NCBI RefSeq assembly: GCF_026571515.1
Contig: NW_026859995.1
Location: forward strand, 248,001-312,000
From: Ruditapes philippinarum
Taxonomy: Eukaryota
Length of the DNA stretch: 64,000 nt
Direction: 5' to 3'
Below are positions 9,116 to 60,400 of this stretch, one piece after another; position 1 is the stretch's first letter, and every line of letters starts with the position of its first letter. Both the position numbers and the translations under genes were made by a program. A model generated the notes under the pieces. That model was given only the letters and a program-made list of their open reading frames with translations, did no database searches and was not told where the DNA came from.

Positions 9116-12100
9116 GTGTATTTGTTACGGTATAAAACACTAGTGTATTTGTTACAGTATAAACACTAGTTATAAAACTCTAGACTAAGTGTATTTGTTA
9201 CGGTATAAACACTAGTGTGTGTGTATCGTCACAAAACGGGTGTATTTGTTATGGTATAAAACACTAGTGTATTTGTTATGGTATAAAATACTTGTTATAA
9301 AACTCTAGACTAAGTGTATTTGTTACGGTATAAACACTAGTGTGTGTGTATCGTCACAAAACGGGTGTATTTGTTATGGTATAAATCACTAGTTATAAAA
9401 CACTAGACTAAGTGTATTTGTAACCGTATAAACACTTGTGTTTGTAACCTTACAAAACGGGTGTATTTGTTATGGTATAAAACACTAGTTATAAAACTCT
9501 AGACTAAGTGTATTTGTTACGGTATAAACACTAGTGTGTGTGTATCGTCACAAAACGGGTGTATTTGTTATGGTATAAAACACTAGTGTATTTGTTATGG
9601 TATAAAATACTTGTTATAAAACTCTAGACTAAGTGTATTTGTTACGGTATAAACACTAGTGTGTGTGTATCGTCACAAAACGGGTGTATTTGTTATGGTA
9701 TAAAACACTTGTTATAAAACTCTAGACTAAGTGTATTTGTTACGGTATAAACACTAGTGTGTGTGTATCGTCACAAAACGGGTGTATTTGTTATGGTATA
9801 AAACACTTGTTATAAAACTCTAGACAAGTGTATTTGTTACGGTATAAACACTAGTGTGTGTGTATCGTCACAAAACGGGTGTATTTGTTACGGTATAAAC
9901 ACTTGTTATAAAACTCTAGACTAACTGTATTTGTTACGGTATAAACACTAGTGTGTGTGTATCGTCACAAAACGGGTGTATTTGTTATGGTATAAAACAC
10001 TTGTTATAAAACTCTAGACTAAGTGTATTTGTTACGGTATAAACACTAGTGTGTGTGTATCGTCACAAAACGGGTGTATTTGTTATGGTATAAAACACTT
10101 GTTATAAAACTCTAGACTAAGTGTATTTGTTACGGTATAAACACTAGTGTGTGTGTATCGTCACAAAACGGGTGTATTTGTTATGGTATAAAACACTTGT
10201 TATAAAACTCTAGACAAGTGTATTTGTTACGGTATAAACACTAGTTATAAAACTCTAGACTAAGTGTATTTGTTACGGTATAAACACTAGTGTGTGTGTA
10301 TCGTCACAAAACGGGTGTATTTGTTATGGTATAAAACACTTGTTATAAAACTCTAGACTAAGTGTATTTGTTACGGTATAAACACTAGTGTGTGTGTATC
10401 GTCACAAAACGGGTGTATTTGTTATGGTATAAAACACTTGTTATAAAACTCTAGACTAAGTGTATTTGTTACGGTATAAACACTAGTGTGTGTGTATCGT
10501 CACAAAACGGGTGTATTTGTTATGGTATAAAACACTTGTTATAAAACTCTAGACAAGTGTATTTGTTACGGTATAAACACTAGTGTGTGTGTATCGTCAC
10601 AAAACGGGTGTATTTGTTATGGTATAAAACACGTGTTATAAAACTCTAGACTAAGTGTATTTGTTACGGTATAAACACTAGTGTGTGTGTATCGTCACAA
10701 AACGGGTGTATTTGTTATGGTATAAAACACTTGTTATAAAACTCTAGACAAGTGTATTTGTTACGGTATAAACACTAGTGTATGTGTATCGTCACAAAAC
10801 GGGTGTATTTGTTATGGTATAAAACACTTGTTATAAAACACTAGACAAGTGTATTTGTTACGGTATAAACACTAGTGTGTGTGTATCGTCACAAAACGGG
10901 TGTATTTGTTATGGTATAAAACACTTGTTATAAAACTCTAGACTAAGTGTATTTGTTACGGTATAAACACTAGTGTGTGTGTATCGTCACAAAACGGGTG
11001 TATTTGTTACAGTATAAACACTAGTTATAAAACACTAGACAAGTGTATTTCTTACGGTATAAACACGTCTAGTTATAAAACACTAAACTAAGTGTATTTG
11101 TTACGGTATAAACACTAGTGTGTATGTAACGTTACAAAAGGGTGTATTTGTTATGGTATAAAACACTTGTTATAAAACTCTAGACTAAGTGTATTTGTTA
11201 CGGCATAAACACTAGTGTGTGTGTATCGTCACAAAACGGGTGTATTTGTTATGGTATAAAACACTTGTTATAAAACTCTAGACTAAGTGTATTTGTTACG
11301 GTATAAACACTAGTGTGTGTGTATCGTCACAAAACGGGTGTATTTGTTATGGTATAAAACACTTGTTATAAAACTCTAGACTAAGTGTATTTGTTACGGT
11401 ATAAACACTAGTGTGTGTGTATCGTCACAAAACGGGTGTATTTGTTATGGTATAAAACACTTGTTATAAAACTCTAGACTAAGTGTATTTGTTACGGTAT
11501 AAACACTAGTGTGTGTGTATCGTCACAAAACGGGTGTATTTGTTATGGTATAAAACACTTGTTATAAAACTCTAGACTAAGTGTATTTGTTACGGTATAA
11601 ACACTAGTGTGTGTGTATCGTCACAAAACGGGTGTATTTGTTATGGTATAAAACACTTGTTATAAAACTCTAGACTAAGTGTATTTGTTACGGTATAAAC
11701 ACTAGTGTGTGTGTATCGTCACAAAACGGGTGTATTTGTTATGGTATAAAACACTTGTTATAAAACTCTAGACTAAGTGTATTTGTTACGGTATAAACAC
11801 TAGTGTGTGTGTATCGTCACAAAACGGGTGTATTTGTTATGGTATAAAACACTTGTTATAAAACTCTAGACTAAGTGTATTTGTTACGGTATAAACATTA
11901 GTGTGTGTGTATCGTCACAAAACGGGTGTATTTGTTATGGTATAAAACACTTGTTATTAAACTCTAGACTAAGTGTATTTGTTACGGTATAAACACTAGT
12001 GTGTGTGTATCGTCACAAAACGGGTGTATTTGTTATGGTATAAAACACTTGTTATAAAACTCTAGACTAAGTGTATTTGTTACGGTATAAACACTAGTGT

Positions 12101-12960
12101 GTGTGTATCGTCACAAAACGGGTGTATTTGTTATGGTATAAAACACTTGTTATAAAACTCTAGACTAAGTGTATTTGTTACGGTATAAACACTAGTGTGT
12201 GTGTATCGTCACAAAACGGGTGTATTTGTTATGGTATAAAACACTTGTTATAAAACTCTAGACTAAGTGTATTTGTTACGGTATAAACACTAGTGTGTGT
12301 GTATCGTCACAAAACGGGTGTATTTGTTATGGTATAAAACACTTGTTATAAAACTCTAGACTAAGTGTATTTGTTACGGTATAAACACTAGTGTGTGTGT
12401 ATCGTCACAAAACGGGTGTATTTGTTATGGTATAAAACACTTGTTATAAAACTCTAGACTAAGTGTATTTGTTTACGGTATAAACACTAGTGTGTGTGTA
12501 TCGTCACAAAACGGGTGTATTTGTTATGGTATAAAACACTTGTTATAAAACTCTAGACTAAGTGTATTTGTTACGGTATAAACACTAGTGTGTGTGTATC
12601 GTCACAAAACGGGTGTATTTGTTATGGTATAAAACACTTGTTATAAAACTCTAGACTAAGTGTATTTGTTACGGTATAAACACTAGTGTGTGTGTATCGT
12701 CACAAAACGGGTGTATTTGTTATGGTATAAAACACTTGTTATAAAAACTCTAGACTAAGTGTATTTGTTACGGTATAAACACTAGTGTGTGTGTATCGTC
12801 ACAAAACGGGTGTATTTGTTATGGTATATAAAACACTTGTTATAAAACACTAAACTAAGTGTATTTGTTACGGTATAAACACTAGTGTGTATGTAACGTT
12901 ACAAAAGGGTGTATTTGTTATGGTATAAAACACTTGTGTAATTGTAACTGGATAAAACAC
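9116..12960. repeat. 98-bp tandem satellite, about 39 copies
   Basis: Unit gtgtatttgttacggtataaacactagtgtgtgtgtatcgtcacaaaacgggtgtatttgttatggtataaaacacttgttataaaactctagactaa (e.g. starts at 11581 and 11679). Near-identical copies built from ~20-27-bp subrepeats. Confidence 0.97.
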
Positions 12961-14453
12961 TTGTATATCTATAACGGTTTAAAAATACTAGTGTATGTGT
13001 TATGATATAAAACACTAGTGCATGTGCCGTACTTGCCCGGTACTTCACTTCAGTGTTGTTATATTCTTCTGGTTCTTCGGGATCATAGATGCCAGCACTT
13101 TTAAGTGTGATCATCTTTGTATGCAAATTAAAGGCGCATTATGCCTCAGATATCTATATTTTTCTTAATTCGCTGTAAACACATTAGTTTTTGGACTTCC
13201 ATACAAAATACTAAATCATTAAAATATACTATTTGCCGACGGACAAAAATAAGAAAAAAGATAGTTTATGTATATGGGCAACGAATATTTCTTGGAAACT
13301 GTTGCCAGACTCTCAAGACACTTTTTTGAAAAAATAAACATTACAGTTTTTTTAAGAAATAATGTGCCTTTCCAAATTGTAGAAATAACGAAGAAGATGG
13401 GAGAGAGACGTTCATAGTTCATGTCAACATCTAAAAGACAGGAACACTAAAATCAGCACAATGAGGTCACCAAGCAGAACCAGGGCAATATCGTGAAAAT
13501 GATGCAACAGATAGAGTATAGTAGGAAAGACCGATGGGAACACTTTATCGTTACGAATTTACGATTCCAATTTCATGAAAAAAAGTTGTTATCGTGCAAT
13601 CGTGAAGTTGAAATTTTGACTTCATGAACTTCATGTTGAAATCGCGACATGGTGTTGTTGAAATCGTGAATTCATGAAGTAGAAATTTCCCCACTGATCT
13701 TAGAATCATTGAATAGAAAGCATTGTTATCAAAGTCGACTTAATTAAGTAGCAGGTGCTATATGTCTCAAATTCACCGTGTCTTGCGACCTTAAGGAGTC
13801 TAATATCGTGTATTATAAGTTTTAATAATTTTTTTAATATTGATACTAAGTAAGATAATTATTGTCATGAATATTGAAGTACGGTTTTAGACATCACGAT
13901 CCGTTTTTGTTAATTAATTTAAACTTAAATTGCTCGATACTGAGAGTGATCTTTCTCTAGATTCCTTTTTATAAACCACTCGGAGTCTAAAATAGCTACT
14001 AGACGCAAAAATTATAGTAGTGTACATTGTATATGAATGTATTTTCTTCAATATCCTACTTGAAAAGTAAAATTGTAACATTTGAAATGCCGTAAATGCA
14101 ACAAATGGAAGAACAGTGTTACATTTCTTAAACTTGTGTTTCTCTTTATAGTTATGTTTAAAAGTGAGTTGGTCTGTAAAATAATATATTATGTAATACA
14201 ATAACAATTCATGTTGATACATGCTAAGATGTGACTATATGTCATATAAATTTACAGACGATAATAAAGTGTTCTAGAAAATTATATTAGTATTCTATTC
14301 AAAGTAAGTAAAATTACTAAAAATGTAATTCTCTCGTTTGTTTATAAAAAAAATCGAGAAACAGAAAGAAATCAGCGACAATTTTTGCACTTGTTGAAAA
14401 ACGACGTTTAAACAACAACAACACTTACAGTTTTTCAAAATATAATTATTTCT

Positions 14454-14494
14454 TTATCGACGCGTTTCGGTTAACAACACCTTCATCAGGATAA
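14454..14494 (-). ncRNA. Minimal type I hammerhead ribozyme (Penelope-like element type)
   Basis: The - strand reads TTATC-CTGATGA-A-GGT-GTTGTTA-ACC-GAAA-CGCG-TC-GATAA. It has the CUGAUGA and GAAA core, stem I TTATC/GATAA, stem II GGT/ACC, palindromic ACGCGT stem III and a GUC cleavage triplet. Confidence 0.85.
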
Positions 14495-16244
14495 TAATAA
14501 TAATGACGTAATAATTATAGCATCACATAAGTTGGCGGAAAAATGACGTTACATTAATAATATCAAGCTAAACATCGGTACAGATTTTGGCGATCCAGAA
14601 GATTTAACAAATTGTCACATCCAAGATTAAAAATTTTAACATTATTATAGGAAAGTAAGACAATGTAAAAAATCACTTTATAAAGCATATTGGGTATCAG
14701 TCTGCGATTTTATTTACAATTGTTGTAGAAATTCTATTAAAAGTCGAGAGGAACAGCTTTAGGCCGCTACCTTTTGTTCCTCAACAACGGTCTCGTAAAA
14801 TTTTGCGGCTAGTAATAACAATTTCCAGCAACTTGGCGACATTTTATTCGTAAATATTCAGGAGTATGGTTTAAATATCAACAGGTATGTCTTTTCTTTA
14901 TAATATTTCTATAACCTATATGGCCAATACCTAGCCCAAAATGATTACTTACTGTAGGTACGGTTAGAAACACAGGAAATATGTAACACACATTTTATAA
15001 AGGAATGCCAAATAAGGTGTCCACTGTTATGTCATTTTTGTCTAAAACTTCAAAGTTTATTAAAAAGAAGCTGTCTTATAAGCTTAGAAAAGTACCCAGG
15101 TGGCCATCGCTGACTGAAACAATTCTCACGAGGCACAGTTACTTATTCCATATATCATAACACCAAATAACCTTTCGCTTCTATACAAAATTAAAATATG
15201 TATTTAGTATAACATTTTGTATATTTATACTATCTATTGGTTTGAACATATTTATTTTCATCAAGTTACAATACAAATACAAAAACGAAATGTATACAAT
15301 ATAAACATCGGTACAGATTTCGGGGATCCAAATGATTTAACAAATTGTCACATCCAAGATTAAATATGTTAACACTATTATAAGAAAAAGTTTAAAAAAC
15401 TATTTAAAGCACGATGGGTATCAGTCTGCGATGTTTGTTTTATAAACACCTGTCTATCAAGAAGTTAACTATTATTATATGAATCATATTTAATATGTGA
15501 CTCATTTTAATTATTTCTACAATATTTTAAGTTTCCAGAGTGGATTCTGTTTATTGAAGCAAATAATGTTGCATCTTGTTTCTATAGTACCTACAGCAGT
15601 TACTATGGCTACATATTATACAAGGAAACACCTGTCAGTGAGTGTCACTCAAATTAACTACATTTAATACGTATTTCATGATTATAAGCAACTTTACAAA
15701 TTGATAGTGACTACTTTCATATTTAATCTTAAAGTTCTGCTTTAGCTAGGTTTAATTTACCTCACATATATTTTGAGGCAAGATTTCGATTGAATTATAA
15801 TTACAACAAACAGCTTGATTATTTGATTCTTTTTTATTCAAGTACAGCTCTTATTTTCTCTATTTTGATACCGCTATGTGTGCCGACACAATGCGTCTGT
15901 TAGAAGAGGTTATATTGATAAAATAGATAAATACAGAATCCCTAAATAAAGCCCAACACTGCAAAATTGAGAATGTTGCAGGCTCGGTTTGATTGAGCCT
16001 GTTCATGGACGGTACTGGAAAGTGCAAGTAACCGTCAACGCCCCCTAGCACCGGCTTAAGCAGAATGCAACATTTGATGTTTTGATTTATCTTTATCCTA
16101 TTGATAACAACAATGTGCCTAAACAGTAACTACACTAATACAAGATTGAATATAACTCATTTTTCTCCCGATTTCTCCAATATTTCAAAATTACAAAACA
16201 GAGGTAAATCATCGGAAGTCTTGCAAAAAGTATTTGTGTTTGAT

Positions 16245-17828: not shown

Positions 17829-18621
17829 CTAGAAAAGAAAAAGCATTCTTGTCGGTGACTTTCTTTGTTGCGGATTTCGTGTGTCAGCACCGCTTATTTC
17901 AGGATGAACGCGTCTCAATGTTTTCTTTTGTTTCAGGATAGTAAAAGCGATTATCAAGTTCCAAAGAATTATAATGATCATTGGAATTATATTCAGAAAA
18001 AGGGAACAAGAATTTCCCTGAAAAAAATGTTTCATAATCCTCGGAGCTATATACACACTTAAAAACCTTGTCAGACCTTGTTATGTTAGTTGATATAGAA
18101 ACTTCCATTTCAACCAGATGGAAGCCTAACATTAAATGACTTGAAAACACGATAATCACAATGAGCAAATTGGTTGAAGCAAGAACAGCAAACCTCGGCG
18201 ACATTTTGTGAGACGAAATAGAGTGAAATCTTGTCAGAAACACCCGTTCGATCGTCAACAAAACAAGCAGCTATACGGAAAACCCACATGAAGCCATTAC
18301 GAAAAATCTAACGCTTTTACACATAAAGTTTGTCATATCTGAGAAACGTATTCCATTGATATTTTCATTTGTATCAAGCACAGTTCCTGTCCACAACACA
18401 ACAAGGGCGGAGCCCGCCAAAAATAGTAAATAGACGCTCGTAGAGTATTTCCGCATTCCTTTTCTTGAAAGTACAACAAAGTTTAATATATTTCCACATG
18501 TTCCGACAGTAATCAAGAAGAATGGAACAGTACGCCAAGTATAGTACGCGAGAAAGCATTCCGTGTACGTATTGATATCACAGGTGACTTGAATAAAATT
18601 GTACGGTGTATCATTCAACAT
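17829..18621 (-). pseudogene. GPCR copy 1 pseudogene
   Basis: Near-identical to copy 3 but with TGG>TAG at 18271-18273, a 7-nt deletion near 18015, TM2 D>A, and a ~0.83-kb deletion removing most of TM6, TM7, the C-tail and the proximal 3' flank. Confidence 0.9.
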
Positions 18622-19910
18622 AGCTAGCTGTATTTAAAAAAGCGAATACTTTATCCAATTTGGTTTACATCGATATAATTCTATAAAGATTTTATATAGT
18701 GTAACTAATCCTGTAGGCAGAGCCAGAGAACAGAAGCATTGTATTGGTCGTAAATGTGTCTCGATGAAATGGATAGGCGTGAGCGAAGAGCTTCTAAATA
18801 AATATTATTATATATTTAAAGATTTTATGTATCCTTTACATTAAGTTCAAACTACTTTATAAAACAATTTTACCAAAGACATAATGTTCTCAAGGCTTTA
18901 CGCAAAACGTTATTTATCAATTGTCGCTTTGTTTATTTTCTATTATATCTTATTTCCCAGGAGAGGTTTTTTCTCTATTCTGTTTCATGTGTAAGCTATT
19001 GACTCAAGATATTTATAAATAAACTGATTAAACAGTCTTTCATAATTCGCAATCAAATTAACAACAGAGATCAATTGCCATATACGTTATCATTTATGGT
19101 TAATGTCAAGTCATCAATATAAATATTTTAACAGTATTCATGTTTAGTTATGATTATTGTTAACAAACATTTAAATGAAAGAAAGACTTGATATTTGAAC
19201 ACGTTTTAATTAAAAAACAATATTTGACTATGTGCAATGTAACCTTTTTCCGTATGAGCATTTTGCGAAAAATGGCTGTTTTCATTGAAAGTTCAAACTG
19301 CTATGAAACTATTAAAAATGCTTCAATTCTAATCAAGCTTGGCAAAAAGGTTGACTGGACAGTAGCCTTTATAAGAGCATGCTCACTCTTAAGGTTCTTA
19401 TTACCATGGCAACAGGGGAATGTCTCAACATTGCAAAAATCACTATTTTGCGTTGTCTTAAACCCTAACCTATTGTTATGCTCTGGAAGACTTGTGTTCT
19501 ATCTGCGAATTTCAGCACTAAACCTCATTTTTTCGACACACTCCAAAATTCACTTTACTACCATTAAAGCTGGAAATTCACAATATGAAATGTGTATATA
19601 TGAAATAGATATATATGTAAACATAAGAAGTACATTGAAAATGCTAAAGTCTGGGCAAGTTTCCTTTGAATAACTGATTCAAATCATAATTTCATTTATA
19701 TTTATTCCCTTTGGGAGAGCGAAAGGATTGAATTTGTTTAACAGCAGAAAGATATTTAATCTTTCATTAATATATTTTTTTCCAATTTGTCTGCAATGAA
19801 GAAATCAGTTATTATTTCATTCAAAAAAGTGTCTGTTGTTATTCCTGACTTACGTATCAGTTGCGTCTTACGATGAATAAAATCGAGTTACTTTATATTT
19901 AATGTTTTAT

Positions 19911-33930: not shown

Positions 33931-35272
33931 TGGTCTTAGAATCATTTAATAGAAAGCATTCATATCGAAGTCGACTTAATTAAGTAGCAGGTGTTATATG
34001 TCTTAAATTTACCGACTCTTGTGACCTTTAGGATCCTTGTATCATATACTATTTTTTCAGACTTTATTAATTCTGAATTTAAAAAGTAAAGAAAACAAAC
34101 TGACTATAATCACAATAGTAACACAATTAATATCATAAATAGACATCACTATCCGTTTTTGTTAATTAATTTAAGTTAATGTGCTCGATGCTGAGAGTAA
34201 TCTTTCACTAGATTCTTTTATTAACCACTTAGACTCTTTATTATCTCGTAAACTATGTTTGCAGAATATAGCTAACGAAGCTAAAAAGAGTAGTTATATA
34301 TGTTTATGGGTCGCATGCATTATATATGAATGTATTTTCTTCACTGTCGTACTTGAAAAGTAAAATTGCAATACTTGAATTGCCGTAAATGTTACAAATG
34401 GTACAGTGTTATATTTCTTAAACTTGTGTTTCTCTTGATAGTGAAGTGGTCTGTAAAATAATATCTGTCATACAATAAAAATTTATGTTGACACGACATG
34501 ATAATGTCATATAAATTTACAGACGATAATAAAGTGTTCTAGAACATTATATAAGTATTCTATTCAAAGTATGTATATTAATACAAAATCACTTAAAAGC
34601 TCTATGAAAAATTGTCATTAGAATGTCATAATGATATCTTCCTTTTGATTTTATTAATATTTAAATTAACTATGAATACATATGATGCAATTCGACGCAG
34701 ATGTTAAGATAAGTTAGTTTGGCAAATGCTTACTATTGTGGCGTAAATTTTGTCAAAATTGTTAACAACGTTAGTGTTTGTATATCTGACATGCTCTGAT
34801 ATAAAGCAGTAAAGGTTGTGAGAAAGGAAAGACATAATGTCAGACATCTTTATGACACACATTAAGAGCCAATATGTTTCGATATCTCTTTTCATTTCGG
34901 CAAATTTCAATGTAACATATAAACAAAATAGTGTTTTTATAATAAGTTATCTATGATGGCCGGTTGCGGCAAATTCATCACACGAGCAATGTTATTGTTC
35001 AAAACAAAATGTCGCGGGCAACTTACAAACCCTCTGAAACCGTATAAAAAGTCGAGGGGAGCATATGGATCTCAACAGTTGTTGAAAACAGCAAGGAAAA
35101 TGTTAACTCCAGTGGCCGGTAGCGTCCATGATTTGACTCGACATTTCTCGCTTGTCTATAAAAAAATCGAAAAACAGAAAAGAAAAGAAATCAGCGACAA
35201 TTTTTGCACTTGTTGAAAAACGACATTTAAACAACAACAACACGTACAGTTTTTCAAAATAATATTATTTCT

Positions 35273-35313
35273 TTATCGACGCGTTTCGGTGAACAACACC
35301 TTCATCAGAATAA
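35273..35313 (-). ncRNA. Minimal type I hammerhead ribozyme, second copy
   Basis: The - strand reads TTATT-CTGATGA-A-GGTG-TTGTT-CACC-GAAA-CGCG-TC-GATAA. Core intact, 4-bp stem II, U-G wobble in stem I. Confidence 0.85.
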
Positions 35314-38300
35314 TAATAATAATAATAATGACGTAATAATTATAGCGTAACATAAGTTGGCGGAAAAATGACGTTACGTTAATAATATCAAGCTAAACAT
35401 CGGTACAGATTTTGGCGATCCAGAAGATTTAATAAATTGTCACATCCAAGATTAAAAATTTTAACATTATTATTACAAAATAAGACAAAGTAAAAAAAAA
35501 CACTTTATAAAGCAAATTGGGTATCAGTCTGCGATTTTTTTTGCACTTGTTGTAGAAATTCTATTAAAAGTCGAGAGGAACAACCATAGGCCGCGACCTT
35601 TTGTTCCTCAACAACGGTCTCGTAAAATATTGCGGCTAGTAATAGCAATTTCCAGCAACGCAACGTGGCGACATTTTATTCGTAAATATTCAGGAGTTTG
35701 GTTTAAATATCAACAGGTGTGTTTTTTCCTTATAATATTTGTATAACGTATATGGCCAATACCTAGCCCAAATTGATTACTTACTGTAGGTACGGTTAGA
35801 AACACAGGAAATATGTAACACAAATTTTATAAAGGGATGCCAAATAAGGTGTCCTCTGTTATGTCAATTTTGTCAAAAACTTCAAAGTTTATTAAAAGGA
35901 AGCCGTCTAAAAAGCTTAGAAAAGTACCAAGGTGGCCATCGCTGACTGAAACAATACTCACGAGGCACAATTACTTATTCTCTATATCATAACACCAAAT
36001 AACCTTTCGCTACTTTATGTGTGATTCAATACAATATTAAAATATGTATTTAGTATAACATTTTGTATATTTATACTATCTATTGGTTTGAACATATTTA
36101 TTTTCATAAAGTTACAATACAATTACATCATAAAGAAAATGTATACAATATCTAGCTAAACATCGGTACAGATTTGGCGATCCAGATGATTTAACAAATT
36201 GTCTCATCCAAGATTAAATATGTTAACATTATTATAAGAAAATAAGACAAAGTAAAAAAACACTATAAAAAGCACAATGGGTATCAGTCTGCGATGTTTT
36301 TATTAACACCTCTTTATCAAAAAGTTAACTATTATTATATGAATCATATTTAATATGTGATTCATGAAATAAAGAGCAAACTTCTTGATAAAGAGGTGTT
36401 AAAACCCTTAAAGAAATCGAAGATTGGCTGTTTGCAATATTAAGTATCTAATTTTATTTAATTCTTTATACCTTATTTTAAGTTTCAAGAGTGGATTCTG
36501 TTTATTGATGTGAATAATGTTGCCTGTTGTTTCTATAGTACCTACAGCAGTTACTATGGCTACATATAATACAAGGAAACACTTGTCAGTGAATGTCACT
36601 CAAATTAACTACATTTAATACGTATTTCATGATTATAAGCAACTTTATAAATTGATAGTGACTTCTTTGATATTTAATCTTATAGTTTTGCTTTAGCTAG
36701 GTTTAATTTACCTCACATATATTTTGAGGCAAGATATCGATTGAATTATAATTACAATACATTTCCAAACAGCTTGATTATTTGATTCTTTTTTATTCAA
36801 GTACAGCTCTTATTTTCTCTATTTTGATACCGTTATGTGTGCCGACACAATGCGTCTGTTAGGAGAGGTTATATTGATGTTTTGATTTATCTTTTTTCTA
36901 TTAATAAAAACAATGTGCCTAAACAGTGACTACACTAATACAAGATTGAATATAACTCATTTTTTCTCCCGATTTCTCCAATATTTCCAAATTACAAAAC
37001 AGAGGTAAATCATCGGGAGTCTTGCAAAAAGTATTTGTGTTTGATATTCGGCGGCCGAGTGATTAATGTCTTTGGCTTGAATTAACCCACTTGCACTTCA
37101 CCGCTAAGGGTTTGAATCCCGCCAATGTCTTTGGATTCTTACACGCCAGGAAGCTCTCAAGTCAGCTTACGGAACGTCGTTTTTTTTCTTCAGGTGCACA
37201 TTCGTGGCTGATAAAAAGCACGGAGGGACACCTGGCCCCTTAACAACGGTAAAACTGGGAAATCGGCTTATACTATCAGTGATGGAGCGATGTTCTAGTA
37301 AAGCCCAACCAAAAACAATCTTTATGTTGTGTTTTTTTTCGATTGGATGTAACAGATCAACAATTTAATATTCTTTCAAAAACAAATAGATATGACAGAA
37401 GAAACATTAAAAAAATGTGCGCACAATTTTTTTCTTCTCCATTACAATGATCCTGTACATGAAATTGTCATGTATGTCATGCTTATAAAATGTGAAGCGT
37501 ACTATAGAAAACAAACAATTTTTACGAATGGTTCGGAAGTAGAGACTATTCTAAACGCTTTTATAGCACATACGTCAAGCGATCACAATTGAAAGTCTTG
37601 GATTACGAGCTTGGGTAACAATAGGCTATAACTGTTATGGGTTGGGACCTTTGGTCAGCTATTTATTCAAAACTAAGTATTGTAATAAACCACTTAATGT
37701 ACCGAACACTAAGACTTGTAATAAACTTAAGCCAAAAAAAATCATTAAAAATTTTAATATACGCAAATATCACATTCTCTTACAACAGTCAATCACAAAA
37801 ATATATTAAGAGAAATTATAAGAAATTAATATAAGAACATCTATAATGTCAACAATACGTCACTTTTATTTTGTTAAAGTGTTATATTCTAGTTAAAAAC
37901 AGGAATGTTATAAGATTTGCCCTCTGTCTGTCAGTCCGTCGTCTGTCTTTCTTTCCCTAAAAACTGTTTCCTGAGAAAAGGAAAAAAGTTAAAACATCAG
38001 TAATACATATTTATCCTGCAAAAATATGATTTGTTGTAAAATGTTGCTGGGGTTCTATCCGGTAGCGAACTTTCAGTTTGCTTACAATACTTTGATAACT
38101 GCTTGTTTAGTCTTTATTGGCATCTGAAAAAGTGACAGCTGTAAACTACCAGCCGTATTCTACCTACTACTTTGAAGTGTTTCACAGGCATCAGGAAATG
38201 CTTTCTTCAATGAGTTCTCTTTGCAATTTATCAGCTTCTGCGACGGATTCCAAAAATATGATTACTTTCAGCTTTTCGAAACTAGACAGAGTTATTACAA

Positions 38301-39578: not shown

Positions 39579-40673
39579 CTATGATATGTGCTGCAGTTGA
39601 ATACGGTCCGTTTGTGTTTGCGGTCGACTTGTGGTAAATACTTCACCAAATTTCTGACGGACATCCACTACCAGTTTACTCCATTCATTCTTAAACAAAG
39701 TCCCACTTACGAAATACAAGAAAAAATTACAGGTGAAATTGCTGTAGACAAGCATCAAAATAATGGCAGTTATCAGCTGGTGCTGAGCAAAACACCGTTC
39801 ATCCAGGTTTTTCAAACCACTTTGGACAACCATGTAAGAGCTGTATGGAAATGTCGTTATCAAAAATGCACCACTTAAAAGAAAAAGCATTCTTGTCGGC
39901 GACTTTCTTTGTTGTGGATTTCGTGTGTCAGCACCGCTTATCTCAGGATGAACGCGTCTCAACTTTTTGTTTTGTTGCAGAATAGTAAAAGCGATTGTCA
40001 AGTTTCCAAGAATAATAATGATTATTGGAATTATATTTAGAAAAAAGAGAACGAGAATTCCCCATGTTTCTGAAAAAAATGTTTCATATTCATCGGAGAT
40101 ATATACACACTTAAAAACCTTGTCATACGTTGTTAAGTTTGTTGATATAGGAACTTCCATTTCAACCAGATGGAAGCCAAACATTAAATGACTTGAAAAC
40201 ACGATAATCACTATGAGCAAAGTGGTCGAAGCAAGAACGGCAAACCTTGGTGTCATTTTGTGAGACGAAATAAAGTGAAATCGTGTCAGAAAAACCCGTT
40301 CGAACGTCAACAAAACAAGCAGCCATACGGAAAACCCACCAGAAGCCATTACCAAAAATCTAACACTTTTACACGTAAAATTTGTCATATCTGATAAACG
40401 TATTCCATTGATATTTTCATTTGTATCTAGCACAGTTCCTGTCCACAACACAACAAGGTCGGAGCCCGCCAAAAACAGTAAATAGACGCTCGTAGAGTAT
40501 TTCCGCATTCCTTTTCTTGAAAGTACAACAAAGTTTAATATATTCCCACATGTTCCGACAGTAATCAAGAAGAATGGAACAGTACGCCAAATATAGTACG
40601 CAAGGAAGCATTCCGTGTACGTATTGATATCACAGGTGTCTTGAATGAAATTGTACGGTGTATCGTTCAACAT
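39579..40673 (-). CDS. Intronless class A (rhodopsin-like) GPCR, 364 aa, FMRFamide-receptor/GPR139-142-like expanded lophotrochozoan type (copy 3, intact)
   Basis: Seven hydrophobic segments, with GN in TM1, LAGSD in TM2, Cys at the top of TM3, TFERV at the DRY position, TM5 IIP, TM6 TTFP and TM7 NFTCNFFLY. N-terminal NDT sequon. Confidence 0.93.
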   Translation of the reverse strand: MLNDTPYNFIQDTCDINTYTECFLAYYIWRTVPFFLITVGTCGNILNFVVLSRKGMRKYSTSVYLLFLAGSDLVVLWTGTVLDTNENINGIRLSDMTNFTCKSVRFLVMASGGFSVWLLVLLTFERVFLTRFHFISSHKMTPRFAVLASTTLLIVIIVFSSHLMFGFHLVEMEVPISTNLTTYDKVFKCVYISDEYETFFSETWGILVLFFLNIIPIIIIILGNLTIAFTILQQNKKLRRVHPEISGADTRNPQQRKSPTRMLFLLSGAFLITTFPYSSYMVVQSGLKNLDERCFAQHQLITAIILMLVYSNFTCNFFLYFVSGTLFKNEWSKLVVDVRQKFGEVFTTSRPQTQTDRIQLQHIS

Positions 40674-40727
40674 ACCTAGCTGCTTTCCAAATAGCGACTT
40701 TGCTTTACATCGATATATATAGACAGA

Positions 40728-40785
40728 TTTTATATAATGTAACTAACCCCGTAGGCAGAGCCAGAGAACAGACGCATTTTATTGG
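40728..40785 (-). promoter_or_regulatory. Putative core promoter of GPCR copy 3 (TATA and CCAAT boxes)
   Basis: On the - strand, TATATAAAA at 40728-40736 lies 55-63 nt upstream of the ATG and CCAAT at 40781-40785 lies ~45 nt further upstream. Both are conserved in copy 1 (~18690-18748) within a conserved block. Confidence 0.5.
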
Positions 40786-57498: not shown

Positions 57499-60400
57499 AT
57501 TGCTCACGTGATATTGTACACGGAGAACGTGGTTTAGAACGGTCCGATAAAATGTCAATTTTTACAACATTTCTAAAGGATTTAGTTAACAATATGTGGA
57601 TATAAAGTAATTTCAGTATATGTGTTCTAATGTCCGATAAGAAAAAAAGTGAAAAAAGTGAACTTTTGTCTGAAAATTCAAAAAATAAACGTGAAGCCAC
57701 GTCACCTTTGTTAGAGGCCAATGACCCGGATTGCACGGACTACTCGTATGGTGATTTACACAAGTGTAGTGAGAAGTGTAGTGATAACAAAACGCAACGG
57801 ACAAATAAATATAGGAATAAAAAAAGCAAACACACTAGTGATAATACACAAACTGTAAGTAGTCACTTTATAGATTGGCCTATGGCTTTTTCCGGCGCTG
57901 CATTCGGAATGATTCAGCCGTCATATGCTACGAGCCCGCCGCCAGCTATGGGGTTCGGGTTCCCAACGCCAGGCGCTGGATTCCCTTCAAATCCACCACA
58001 ATGGGCGACTGAACTCATAAATGACGTAAAAATGATAAAGGAAAAACTTCATTCTATCGATAAAATTGAGAAGTCAATTTCATCCATTAATATAAAAATG
58101 ACAGACATAGAATCAAAAATGAAATCATTCGGTACTAGGATCACTGACACTGAAAAATGCTGTGAATACTTGTCTAAGGACAATGATTCGATACACACGA
58201 AGTGACCTGAAAAATATAAAAAAGGATTTTAACTTTGTATAATCACTATCCACTCAGATATGCGGGGTGCAAGAGAAACTTGAACAACAGGTTATAAATC
58301 TAGAAATGCAGTCACTGCAGAATAACCTTTTATTTTATGGATTTCCCGAGGAACTAGACGAGAACTGCGGAAACCTAATAAAAGAGCTATGTAGAGATAC
58401 GTTGAAATTGTCTGACGCTGAAACATTTGGGTTTGAGAAACCCCCCTATCGTCTTGGAAAACGTTCGCCTGGAAAAACACGTCCAATTTTAGCACGTTTT
58501 ATACAAAATCATCAGCGAGAACGTGTAAGGTCCGCGTCTTTCGATCAAGCAGACGACTTGAGGGATGTAGCACGTGGGATCGGGATTCAACTACCTAGGG
58601 GCAGTGCGTGATGCTAGAAGACCGCTGTATCCGAAAAATGGAAGAGGCGAAAAAGGCCGGTAAAATTTGTAAAATTCATCGGAACAAAATTATTCATTAA
58701 TAGTGTAGAATACAAACCGAGTAGTGATTACTAGAGATGTCATGAAGAGTTATCCTTAAATGTACTGTGTTGGAATGTCAACGGACTAATAAGACATATT
58801 ACTGATAATGATTTTATTTCGTTTATATCTAGTTATGATTTAGTGTTTCTAAATTAGACTTGGATTTCGAAAACTGACTTATATAGATATGATATTTCTG
58901 GATTTACTTGCATTCAACTTAGTGGAAATAAGGTAAAGAACAGTAGTAGAGGTAGATACAGTGGCGGTATTTCTTTATACTTTAATAATGATATTAAAAG
59001 ATATATATAACTGTAGCAGAAATGAACCAATATGGATATATGTGGATTAAATTAAGTCAAGAACTATTTTCATTTAATGAAGATGTATTTATATGTCACT
59101 TGTATATACCTCCCGTAAATTCTAAGGTAATTAAACTGGAGGAATTTGATTTTTTTGAAAATTTAGAAAATGATATTTTGAAATATAACGAATTAGGCAA
59201 AATATACGTAACTGGCGATTTTAATAGTCGTACCGCCGATTTGCCTGACTATTTTTTATTTGATAAATACTTAGACGAAAACTACCCTTTTGTTAACCGA
59301 ATAAACATACCCGAACGAGTTAACAGAGACCACGTGATTGATACGCACGGGCGTCGTCTGCTGGATTTGTGTATATCAACCGGTTTGTCGATAGCAAACG
59401 GTAGGGTGTCACATGACCGCGATACGGGCGATTACACTTACTGTTCACATCAAGGGCAAAGTACTGTAGACTACTTACTATTAAACCGGCATGATTTCGA
59501 CTCATTATTGAGTTTCGAAATTCTCGATTTCAACTCATTTTCGGACCACGCGCCTTTAACGTTTAGTTTGCCTAGAAAGAATTTAAACAAAAACTATCAG
59601 TCAGTACCTTCCGTTAATAATACATCTATACAAAGAATTGTATGGGATCAAAATAAAGTCAGTCTTTTTACAGAAAATATAAATAATAAAAGAAATACGT
59701 TTTTGCAATTATCAAACGCTTTAAATATGGAACCAATAGATGTTGTTGTTGAAAACTTTTCATCGGAACTTTTAAAATCTGCTTCTGATGTATTCAGACA
59801 ACAAACAATCGTAGAAAAAATTAATACTCGCCAAAACAAAAATAAATGGTTTGACTATGCTTGTTTACGCGAAAAAAAAAGCAGTTCAATAGCGTCCGAA
59901 CTAATTTCTTGCGTAACAGAGATAATGATGATATCAGACGGAACTTTGTGCACGCGCGAACAAAATATAATAAAGTTAAAAAAATCGCGAAACGGAAATT
60001 CAAAATTAACGAGGGCAAAAGACTAAAAGATCTAGCAAAGAAAAATCCTAGAAATTTCTGGATAACCCTGAAAAAAATAAATAAGAATGTCATAGACAAC
60101 CCAGAATCTCTTAATATTAATGACCTACGTGATCATTTTAAAACACTTTTTGGGGAAACCAGCTCAAACGATATGAGTGGTAATGTCTTCGTCGGTTCCG
60201 AAATTCCGGAAATTGATATAAATTTTACAGAAACAGAGTTACGAACTGCCAATTTTTTTCGCAGAAAAATAAAAATCGCCAGGCAGTGATCAGATTACTA
60301 GCGAAATGCTAAAAACCTCATAAGATATTATTTCCCCCTTTTTTATTAAACCTGTATAACAAATTATTTAATACAGGGGAATATCCAGTAAGTTGGGGTG

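Follow-up and report, generated by a model that had tools for sequence, protein, structure and literature searches.

The sequence analysed here is a stretch of 64,000 nucleotides from Ruditapes philippinarum, referred to below as the window, and is occupied in part by a duplicated GPCR cassette. Window positions 12830-48800 together with G000:C8482:436511-466510 contain at least six tandem cassette units and one inverted unit, each with a single-exon rhodopsin-type GPCR; the GPCRs of units 1 and 2 are pseudogenes, while those of units 3 and 4 are open frames. The same insertion, the 3' end of a Penelope-like element (PLE) with a hammerhead ribozyme motif, is present in units 1 and 3. In both it lies on the GPCR-coding strand, 3.3 kb downstream of the gene in unit 1 and 4.3 kb in unit 3. 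The features relevant to the analysis are the following:

14382-14396, no strand assigned: 15-bp target-site duplication (TSD) copy at the element's 3' end, unit 1
14398-14558, minus strand: last 161 bp of a Penelope-like element of the Neptune/Nematis type, truncated at its 5' side and reaching the family 3' end
14454-14494, minus strand: PLE-type hammerhead motif, type I and minimal, with cleavage predicted at 14459/14458
14559-14710, no strand assigned: X', the 5'-junction patch (152 bp), copied in direct orientation from a cassette segment that lies about 600 bp farther along
14711-14725, no strand assigned: second TSD copy, decayed in unit 1 (12/15 match), exact in unit 3
15302-15440, no strand assigned: X, the unit-1 copy of the segment that is the likely patch template
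17844-18633, minus strand: GPCR pseudogene of unit 1, with a stop codon at 18271-18273, a frameshift around codon 200 and its final ~100 codons unmatched
35201-35552, minus strand: the same insertion in unit 3 (element 35216-35383, hammerhead 35273-35313, patch 35384-35537)
36147-36301, no strand assigned: unit-3 copy of X, the closest match to the patch (90-91%)
39579-40742, minus strand: unit-3 open single-exon GPCR frame of the rhodopsin family (7tm_1, E 2.5e-20)

Several other repeats were seen in the window. A 98-bp tandem array of about 35 copies occupies 9130-12990, with a near-identical core (99%) from 11136 on. Short repeats of very high copy number, deeply covered by both RNA and DNA reads, are found at 15920-16075 and 19254-19330; unit 3 lacks the segment 15915-16073, as does a run X1 contig. 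A broken LINE-like element with ORF1-like frames and an endonuclease domain (PF14529, below its cut-off) lies at 57606-60289.

The layout of the motif was examined base by base on the minus strand (14494-14454). Stem I has 5 bp (14494-14490 pairing with 14458-14454) and is likely to extend through the TTA/AAT runs to about 14504/14441. It is followed by the core box CUGAUGA (14489-14483), a single unpaired A (14482), stem II (14481-14469), GAA, a palindrome ACGCGU (14465-14460) standing where helix III would be, and a GUC triplet; cleavage is predicted to fall between 14459 and 14458. The conserved core boxes and the NUH triplet are thus present, A14482 is the unpaired base at 9/10.1, and G14481-C14469 is the G10.1-C11.1 pair. 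A descriptor made of the core boxes, a stem I of at least 5 bp and a stem II of at least 3 bp matched exactly twice in the window (core boxes at 14489 and 35308) and in none of 200 dinucleotide-preserving shuffles searched on both strands. The second match is the twin in unit 3 (35313-35273, minus strand), which has a 4-bp stem II and one wobble in stem I. The motif had been described as a minimal type I hammerhead accompanied by a (TAA)n run and an upstream motif, all of which is borne out; it had also been called intact, and this holds for the core, where every base is kept, but not for stem II, which has 3 bp instead of the 4 bp that most family copies have (at 14472, unit 1 has A where the majority of 21 copies has C, and the fourth pair is broken). 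The Rfam scan gave no match at E ≤ 1, and the minimum-energy fold is not a hammerhead: the core pairs with the palindrome instead (−5.8 kcal/mol against −2.9 for the hammerhead-like fold), with no excess stability (z = −0.2). Such a fold is to be expected of a motif without helix III. The predicted minimum-energy cofold of two copies was likewise not a double hammerhead.

These features closely resemble the minimal hammerheads (min-HHRs) described by Cervera and De la Pena in 2014 (PMC4209133), which share the 4-5 bp helix I, the unpaired 9/10.1 base, the G10.1-C11.1 pair and a palindrome for helix III. According to the same text, most min-HHRs are single motifs from truncated metazoan PLEs, and a single motif did not cleave. 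The predicted helix II has 4 bp in the window family (3 bp in the window copy), whereas 7-8 bp are given for Schistosoma (PMC4209133). In another PLE hammerhead (PAc HHR) cleavage needs the PLE protein, and reverse transcription starts internally, downstream of the ribozyme (PMC11167929). By analogy with what is reported for other PLE hammerheads, cleavage in the parent element of the window copy would require either a dimer or the help of protein, and a lone copy would cut poorly. A 2017 paper is said to have described dimer cleavage of PLE hammerheads.

Positions 14380-14600 were compared with the clam's own genome, and 40 of the 49 candidates were scored. All 40 match the query, which sets a lower bound of 40 on the size of the family. 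The copies stop sharply at one common 3' end, 61 nt past the cut site, and differ at their 5' ends, which lie between ~55 nt and more than 1.9 kb upstream of it, the longest running on into a coding region. The window copy itself (14398-14558) comprises promoter-like motifs, a TTA run, the hammerhead and the 61-nt tail to the fixed family 3' end; the upstream motif is a putative E2F-like and CRE-like promoter. In longer copies the 3' part is preceded by a 3'UTR with a 27-bp minisatellite and, upstream of that, by a GIY-YIG frame (P0001, from L004) that scores 27.3 bits against PF01541 (cut-off 22.6, E 4.5e-6) and has a CX4CXXC linker and the CCHH residues, with a CXXC between GIY and YIG and two downstream His. 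One further copy of the same family (L032, 88% identical to L031 over 896 bp) reaches reverse transcriptase (RT) sequence and matches the RT-to-endonuclease part of a sister ORF (tblastn E 2e-50). Together with an 819-aa frame in a sister family, this copy supports an RT upstream of the endonuclease in a single ORF. The earlier statement that the hammerhead architecture marks a PLE terminal piece is therefore confirmed by the GIY-YIG and RT of the longer copies, and no PLE ORF was found in the 64-kb window, again as stated. The genome search, which established the size of the family and its PLE coding sequence, yielded no tandem dimers among the 40 scored matches and no intact parent ORF: for this exact family only broken pieces of a full-length parent were found, the best RT-GIY copies being broken, and no partial tandem of the pLTR-ORF-pLTR type, an arrangement that was found in the sister copy L094.

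On sequence grounds, the family would be classed among the EN+ PLEs with a Neptune/Nematis linker finger and a C-terminal endonuclease, a placement that does not separate Neptune from Nematis. A CX2-5CXXC linker finger and CCHH residues are described for both groups (PMC8557442). The likeness to these elements extends to the order of RT and C-terminal GIY-YIG, a terminal repeat that contains the hammerhead, TSDs of variable length, truncation at the 5' end and, in the sister families, inverted 5' copies and partial tandems (PMC8557442; PMC3846280). A difference is that the window family looks inactive, its copies being 81-95% alike with no intact ORF found among them. As a separate matter, three copies (L025, L028 and L095) were considered as a re-mobilised chimeric subfamily; this was rejected, all of them lying in duplicated regions.

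The insertion as a whole measures about 330 bp and is bracketed by the 15-bp TSD. In unit 3 the TSD is exact (35201-35215 and 35538-35552) and encloses the element together with an additional 154 bp. The joint between this patch and the TSD is covered by a run X2 contig (35403-35625). The fixed 3' end, the 5' truncation, the variable TSDs and the existence of empty sites are marks of target-primed reverse transcription (TPRT). The initial annotation was right that the piece is a PLE terminus without its ORF, but in place of a solo pLTR left by recombination, an insertion truncated at its 5' end, flanked by a 15-bp TSD and joined to a patch copied from the flank, fits better. Among the six units seen, the site is filled in two, empty in two (units 4 and 5, on the same contig, where both element and patch are absent) and deleted in two (units 2 and 6, which are unusable as empty sites since the deletions remove the site). 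In contig positions 322001-436510, outside this comparison, the genome searches listed no match. A contig of run X1 also shows the empty form, skipping 14383-14712 with only 21 letters on one side; it may stem from an empty paralog or from the host repeat and was not counted as a polymorphism. The insertion target itself (14330-14396 and 14711-14830) is an unclassified dispersed repeat with at least 40 scored copies.

We then asked from where the patch was copied. Its identity is 90-91% to X of unit 3, 82-83% to X of unit 1, 74-86% to X of the other units and 70-77% to nine dispersed copies of the repeat to which X belongs; its final ~40 nt align with cassette copies only. That the patch is closer to X of unit 3 than to X of unit 1 requires mosaic evolution of the units. 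No clean microhomology was seen at the joint between patch and element. This last observation, and the fact that X is part of a dispersed repeat, would suit a history in which stub and patch arose in separate events, either by a later local duplication or by a template switch to RNA of the same repeat from elsewhere. We consider this history very unlikely, since stub and patch lie within one exact 15-bp TSD, neither is present in the empty paralogs, the patch includes cassette-specific sequence, and the patch-X distance of ~9-10% fits twice the ~4% distance between the stub and the family majority.

A single event is therefore favoured, in which the patch belongs to the insertion. Of seven other copies searched for locally templated 5' extras, six had none. 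In the seventh, L021 (L117:4628-4825), TSD and element are separated by 92 bp copied from the upstream flank in inverted, fold-back orientation, a second locally templated 5' junction. PLEs have been noted to capture host DNA (PMC3846280), and the 5' extras of zebrafish LINEs (ZfL2-2) often derive from flanking DNA (PMC4245944); the 'templated insertions' of L1 are shorter than 250 bp, with templates typically within 15 bp (10.1101/2024.08.27.596794). The window insertion resembles these LINE cases in having near-target host DNA of less than 250 bp in the 5' junction, inside the TSD, and differs from them in that the element is a PLE and the template lies ~600 bp away in direct orientation. 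PMC13174262 and PMC9977147 provide context only.

The initial annotation had also offered a retrozyme-like unit as a possible description. Retrozymes consist of tandem 150-450 bp units, each with a hammerhead (PMC7229834; 10.64898/2026.07.22.740005), and the window element might be one monomer from a retrozyme or SINE-like family, non-autonomous and mobilised via circular RNA as a short unit of fixed length. Seven copies (L016, L018, L019, L025, L026, L029 and L030) do start close to the hammerhead on its 5' side, at 55-73 of 161, and non-LTR retrozymes share with the window family a type I hammerhead in a short, non-coding, AT-rich repeat related to PLEs, of which they are proposed derivatives (10.64898/2026.07.22.740005). 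Unlike retrozymes, however, the window family is dispersed, 5'-truncated, flanked by TSDs and continuous with a PLE ORF: tandem arrays are absent among the 40 scored matches, with at most two, distant, copies per contig; the spread of 5' ends reaches the coding region; and the end of the unit, 61 nt past the cut site, does not coincide with it. With no tandem array and variable 5' ends, this description is not supported and we hold it to be very improbable. The starts of the seven copies fall within the TTA run, past the promoter-like motifs and immediately before the hammerhead, and may mark an RNA start or slippage.

Between units 1 and 3 the hammerhead shows no extra conservation: identity is 39/41 in the hammerhead, 152/161 (94.4%) in the element, 145/154 (94.2%) in the patch and 268/284 (94.4%) in the flank. 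This flat profile indicates that the insert predates the duplication of units 1 and 3. A comparison of non-CpG changes used 21 of the 40 copies, leaving aside 19 that were segmental duplicates or whose ribozyme was affected by truncation or deletion, and gave 7/210 (3.3%) in the core and 45/975 (4.6%) outside the ribozyme (P = 0.58). The core thus decays like its flanks, in a test of small power (7 core changes among copies ~4% diverged) that young weak selection on one copy would escape.

RNA evidence came from six runs, of which 4-19% of each was read, with tissues unspecified and libraries apparently unstranded, so that power is low. At position 14425 all 11 reads carry the base of another copy (9/9 in run X18 and 2/2 in run X24). 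In three RNA runs the depth over the unit-1 GPCR was 0-0.1, and in three it was below 1 over the unit-3 GPCR frame. Across the six shallow runs the depth over the element was below 2, with no back-joint listed there, no locus-specific reads and no pile of molecule ends at the site; a search of sequencing runs listed no RNA run that contains the site. Shallow RNA from unspecified tissues gives no support for regulation, rather than excluding it, and the stub, which retains the upstream promoter-like motifs, could be transcribed in an unsampled tissue.

These data bear on the suggestion that the hammerhead could cut GPCR read-through transcripts, for which the stub would have to be co-opted as a cis-acting ribozyme that cleaves read-through or terminates transcription between units. 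Its position on the GPCR strand, the retention of all 11 core bases in both window copies and the open GPCR frame of unit 3 would be compatible with such a role. Against it, the unit-1 GPCR is a pseudogene; the site is filled in only 2/6 units, and unit 4, where it is empty, has a 410-aa open GPCR frame; the core is also retained in 12/21 unrelated family copies; each window copy has a private stem change; and the low-power RNA data are those given above. With no sign of selection either, cutting of read-through is unsupported, and co-option appears highly unlikely.

We conclude that this is very probably a PLE-borne hammerhead in a 161-bp 5'-truncated stub that was inserted with a TSD and a local patch and was later carried along when the GPCR cassette duplicated; it is likely to be a relic under neutral decay, without a role for the receptor. 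As to the steps, the GIY-YIG endonuclease of an autonomous family member would have made a staggered cut, ~15 nt apart, within the dispersed repeat; reverse transcription would have set in ~60 nt beyond the hammerhead cut site and ended once ~161 nt had been copied. By means of its terminal A run, the free target strand is then likely to have annealed to a T run ~600 bp away, X having a matching run, and to have copied ~154 nt, and the copied segment would have been joined to the cDNA as flank-templated 5' extra DNA. PLE stubs of this kind have been described in thousands per animal genome. The ribozyme as such therefore adds little, the hammerhead stub being an ordinary truncated PLE insertion, but it serves as a dated marker for the order of cassette duplication, being present in units 1 and 3 at a site that is empty in units 4 and 5. 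The insertion also illustrates cleanly how the 5' junction of a PLE can be repaired from a flanking template, and the anatomy of such junctions, namely the local patch and the 5' A-tracts of sister families, is the sole mildly interesting part. The 5' junction step of PLE integration is still experimentally unproven (PMC11167929).

Sister families were obtained by a search with P0001, in which 150 of 1762 candidate relatives were scored; two young families are among them. One of these has the 819-aa frame, with RVT_1 and GIY-YIG both above cut-offs, and the copy L094 is a partial tandem with two hammerheads 3.6 kb apart. In both families a hammerhead of this layout lies 52-57 nt before the 3' end; they also have the upstream promoter-like motif, and differ from the window family in the sequences of stem I, stem II and the palindrome; one has the U3-A8 core, also described in PMC4209133. 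An architecture that is shared while stems and palindromes differ links the motif with the transposon and not with the locus.

Among the 24 loci of the young sister families with a placeable 5' boundary, 14 were examined and 12 of these have a TSD of 11-16 bp. At 8 of the 12 TSD-resolved loci, the 8 bases that follow the upstream TSD include 7 or more A (background 0.75%). The same A-richness was found in 3 of 17 candidate TSDs of the old (window) family, for which 18 of the 40 copies were tried and some short TSDs may be due to chance. At L052, L053, L056, L059, L064, L067, L069 and L071, a sense A-tract of up to ~40 nt lies between the upstream TSD and the truncated element. A literature search, covering freely accessible papers and the main texts of preprints, found no report of templated or A-tract PLE 5' junctions. 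We tentatively propose, as a possibility that we would not yet favour, that Neptune-type PLEs in this genome seal their 5' ends via an A-tailed target strand, whose tail would usually prime on the cDNA, giving a sense A-tract, or else on a nearby T run, giving a host patch (such as the 154-bp patch and the 92-bp fold-back of L021). If true, A-tail priming would be a general rule of PLE second-strand priming. Finally, four of the sister copies (L072, L094, L113 and L114) belong to a young PLE family, with copies 98-99.9% alike, the U3-A8 core and a 4-nt palindrome, which, with its 819-aa RT-GIY-YIG frame and its partial tandem, is a good candidate for an active element.
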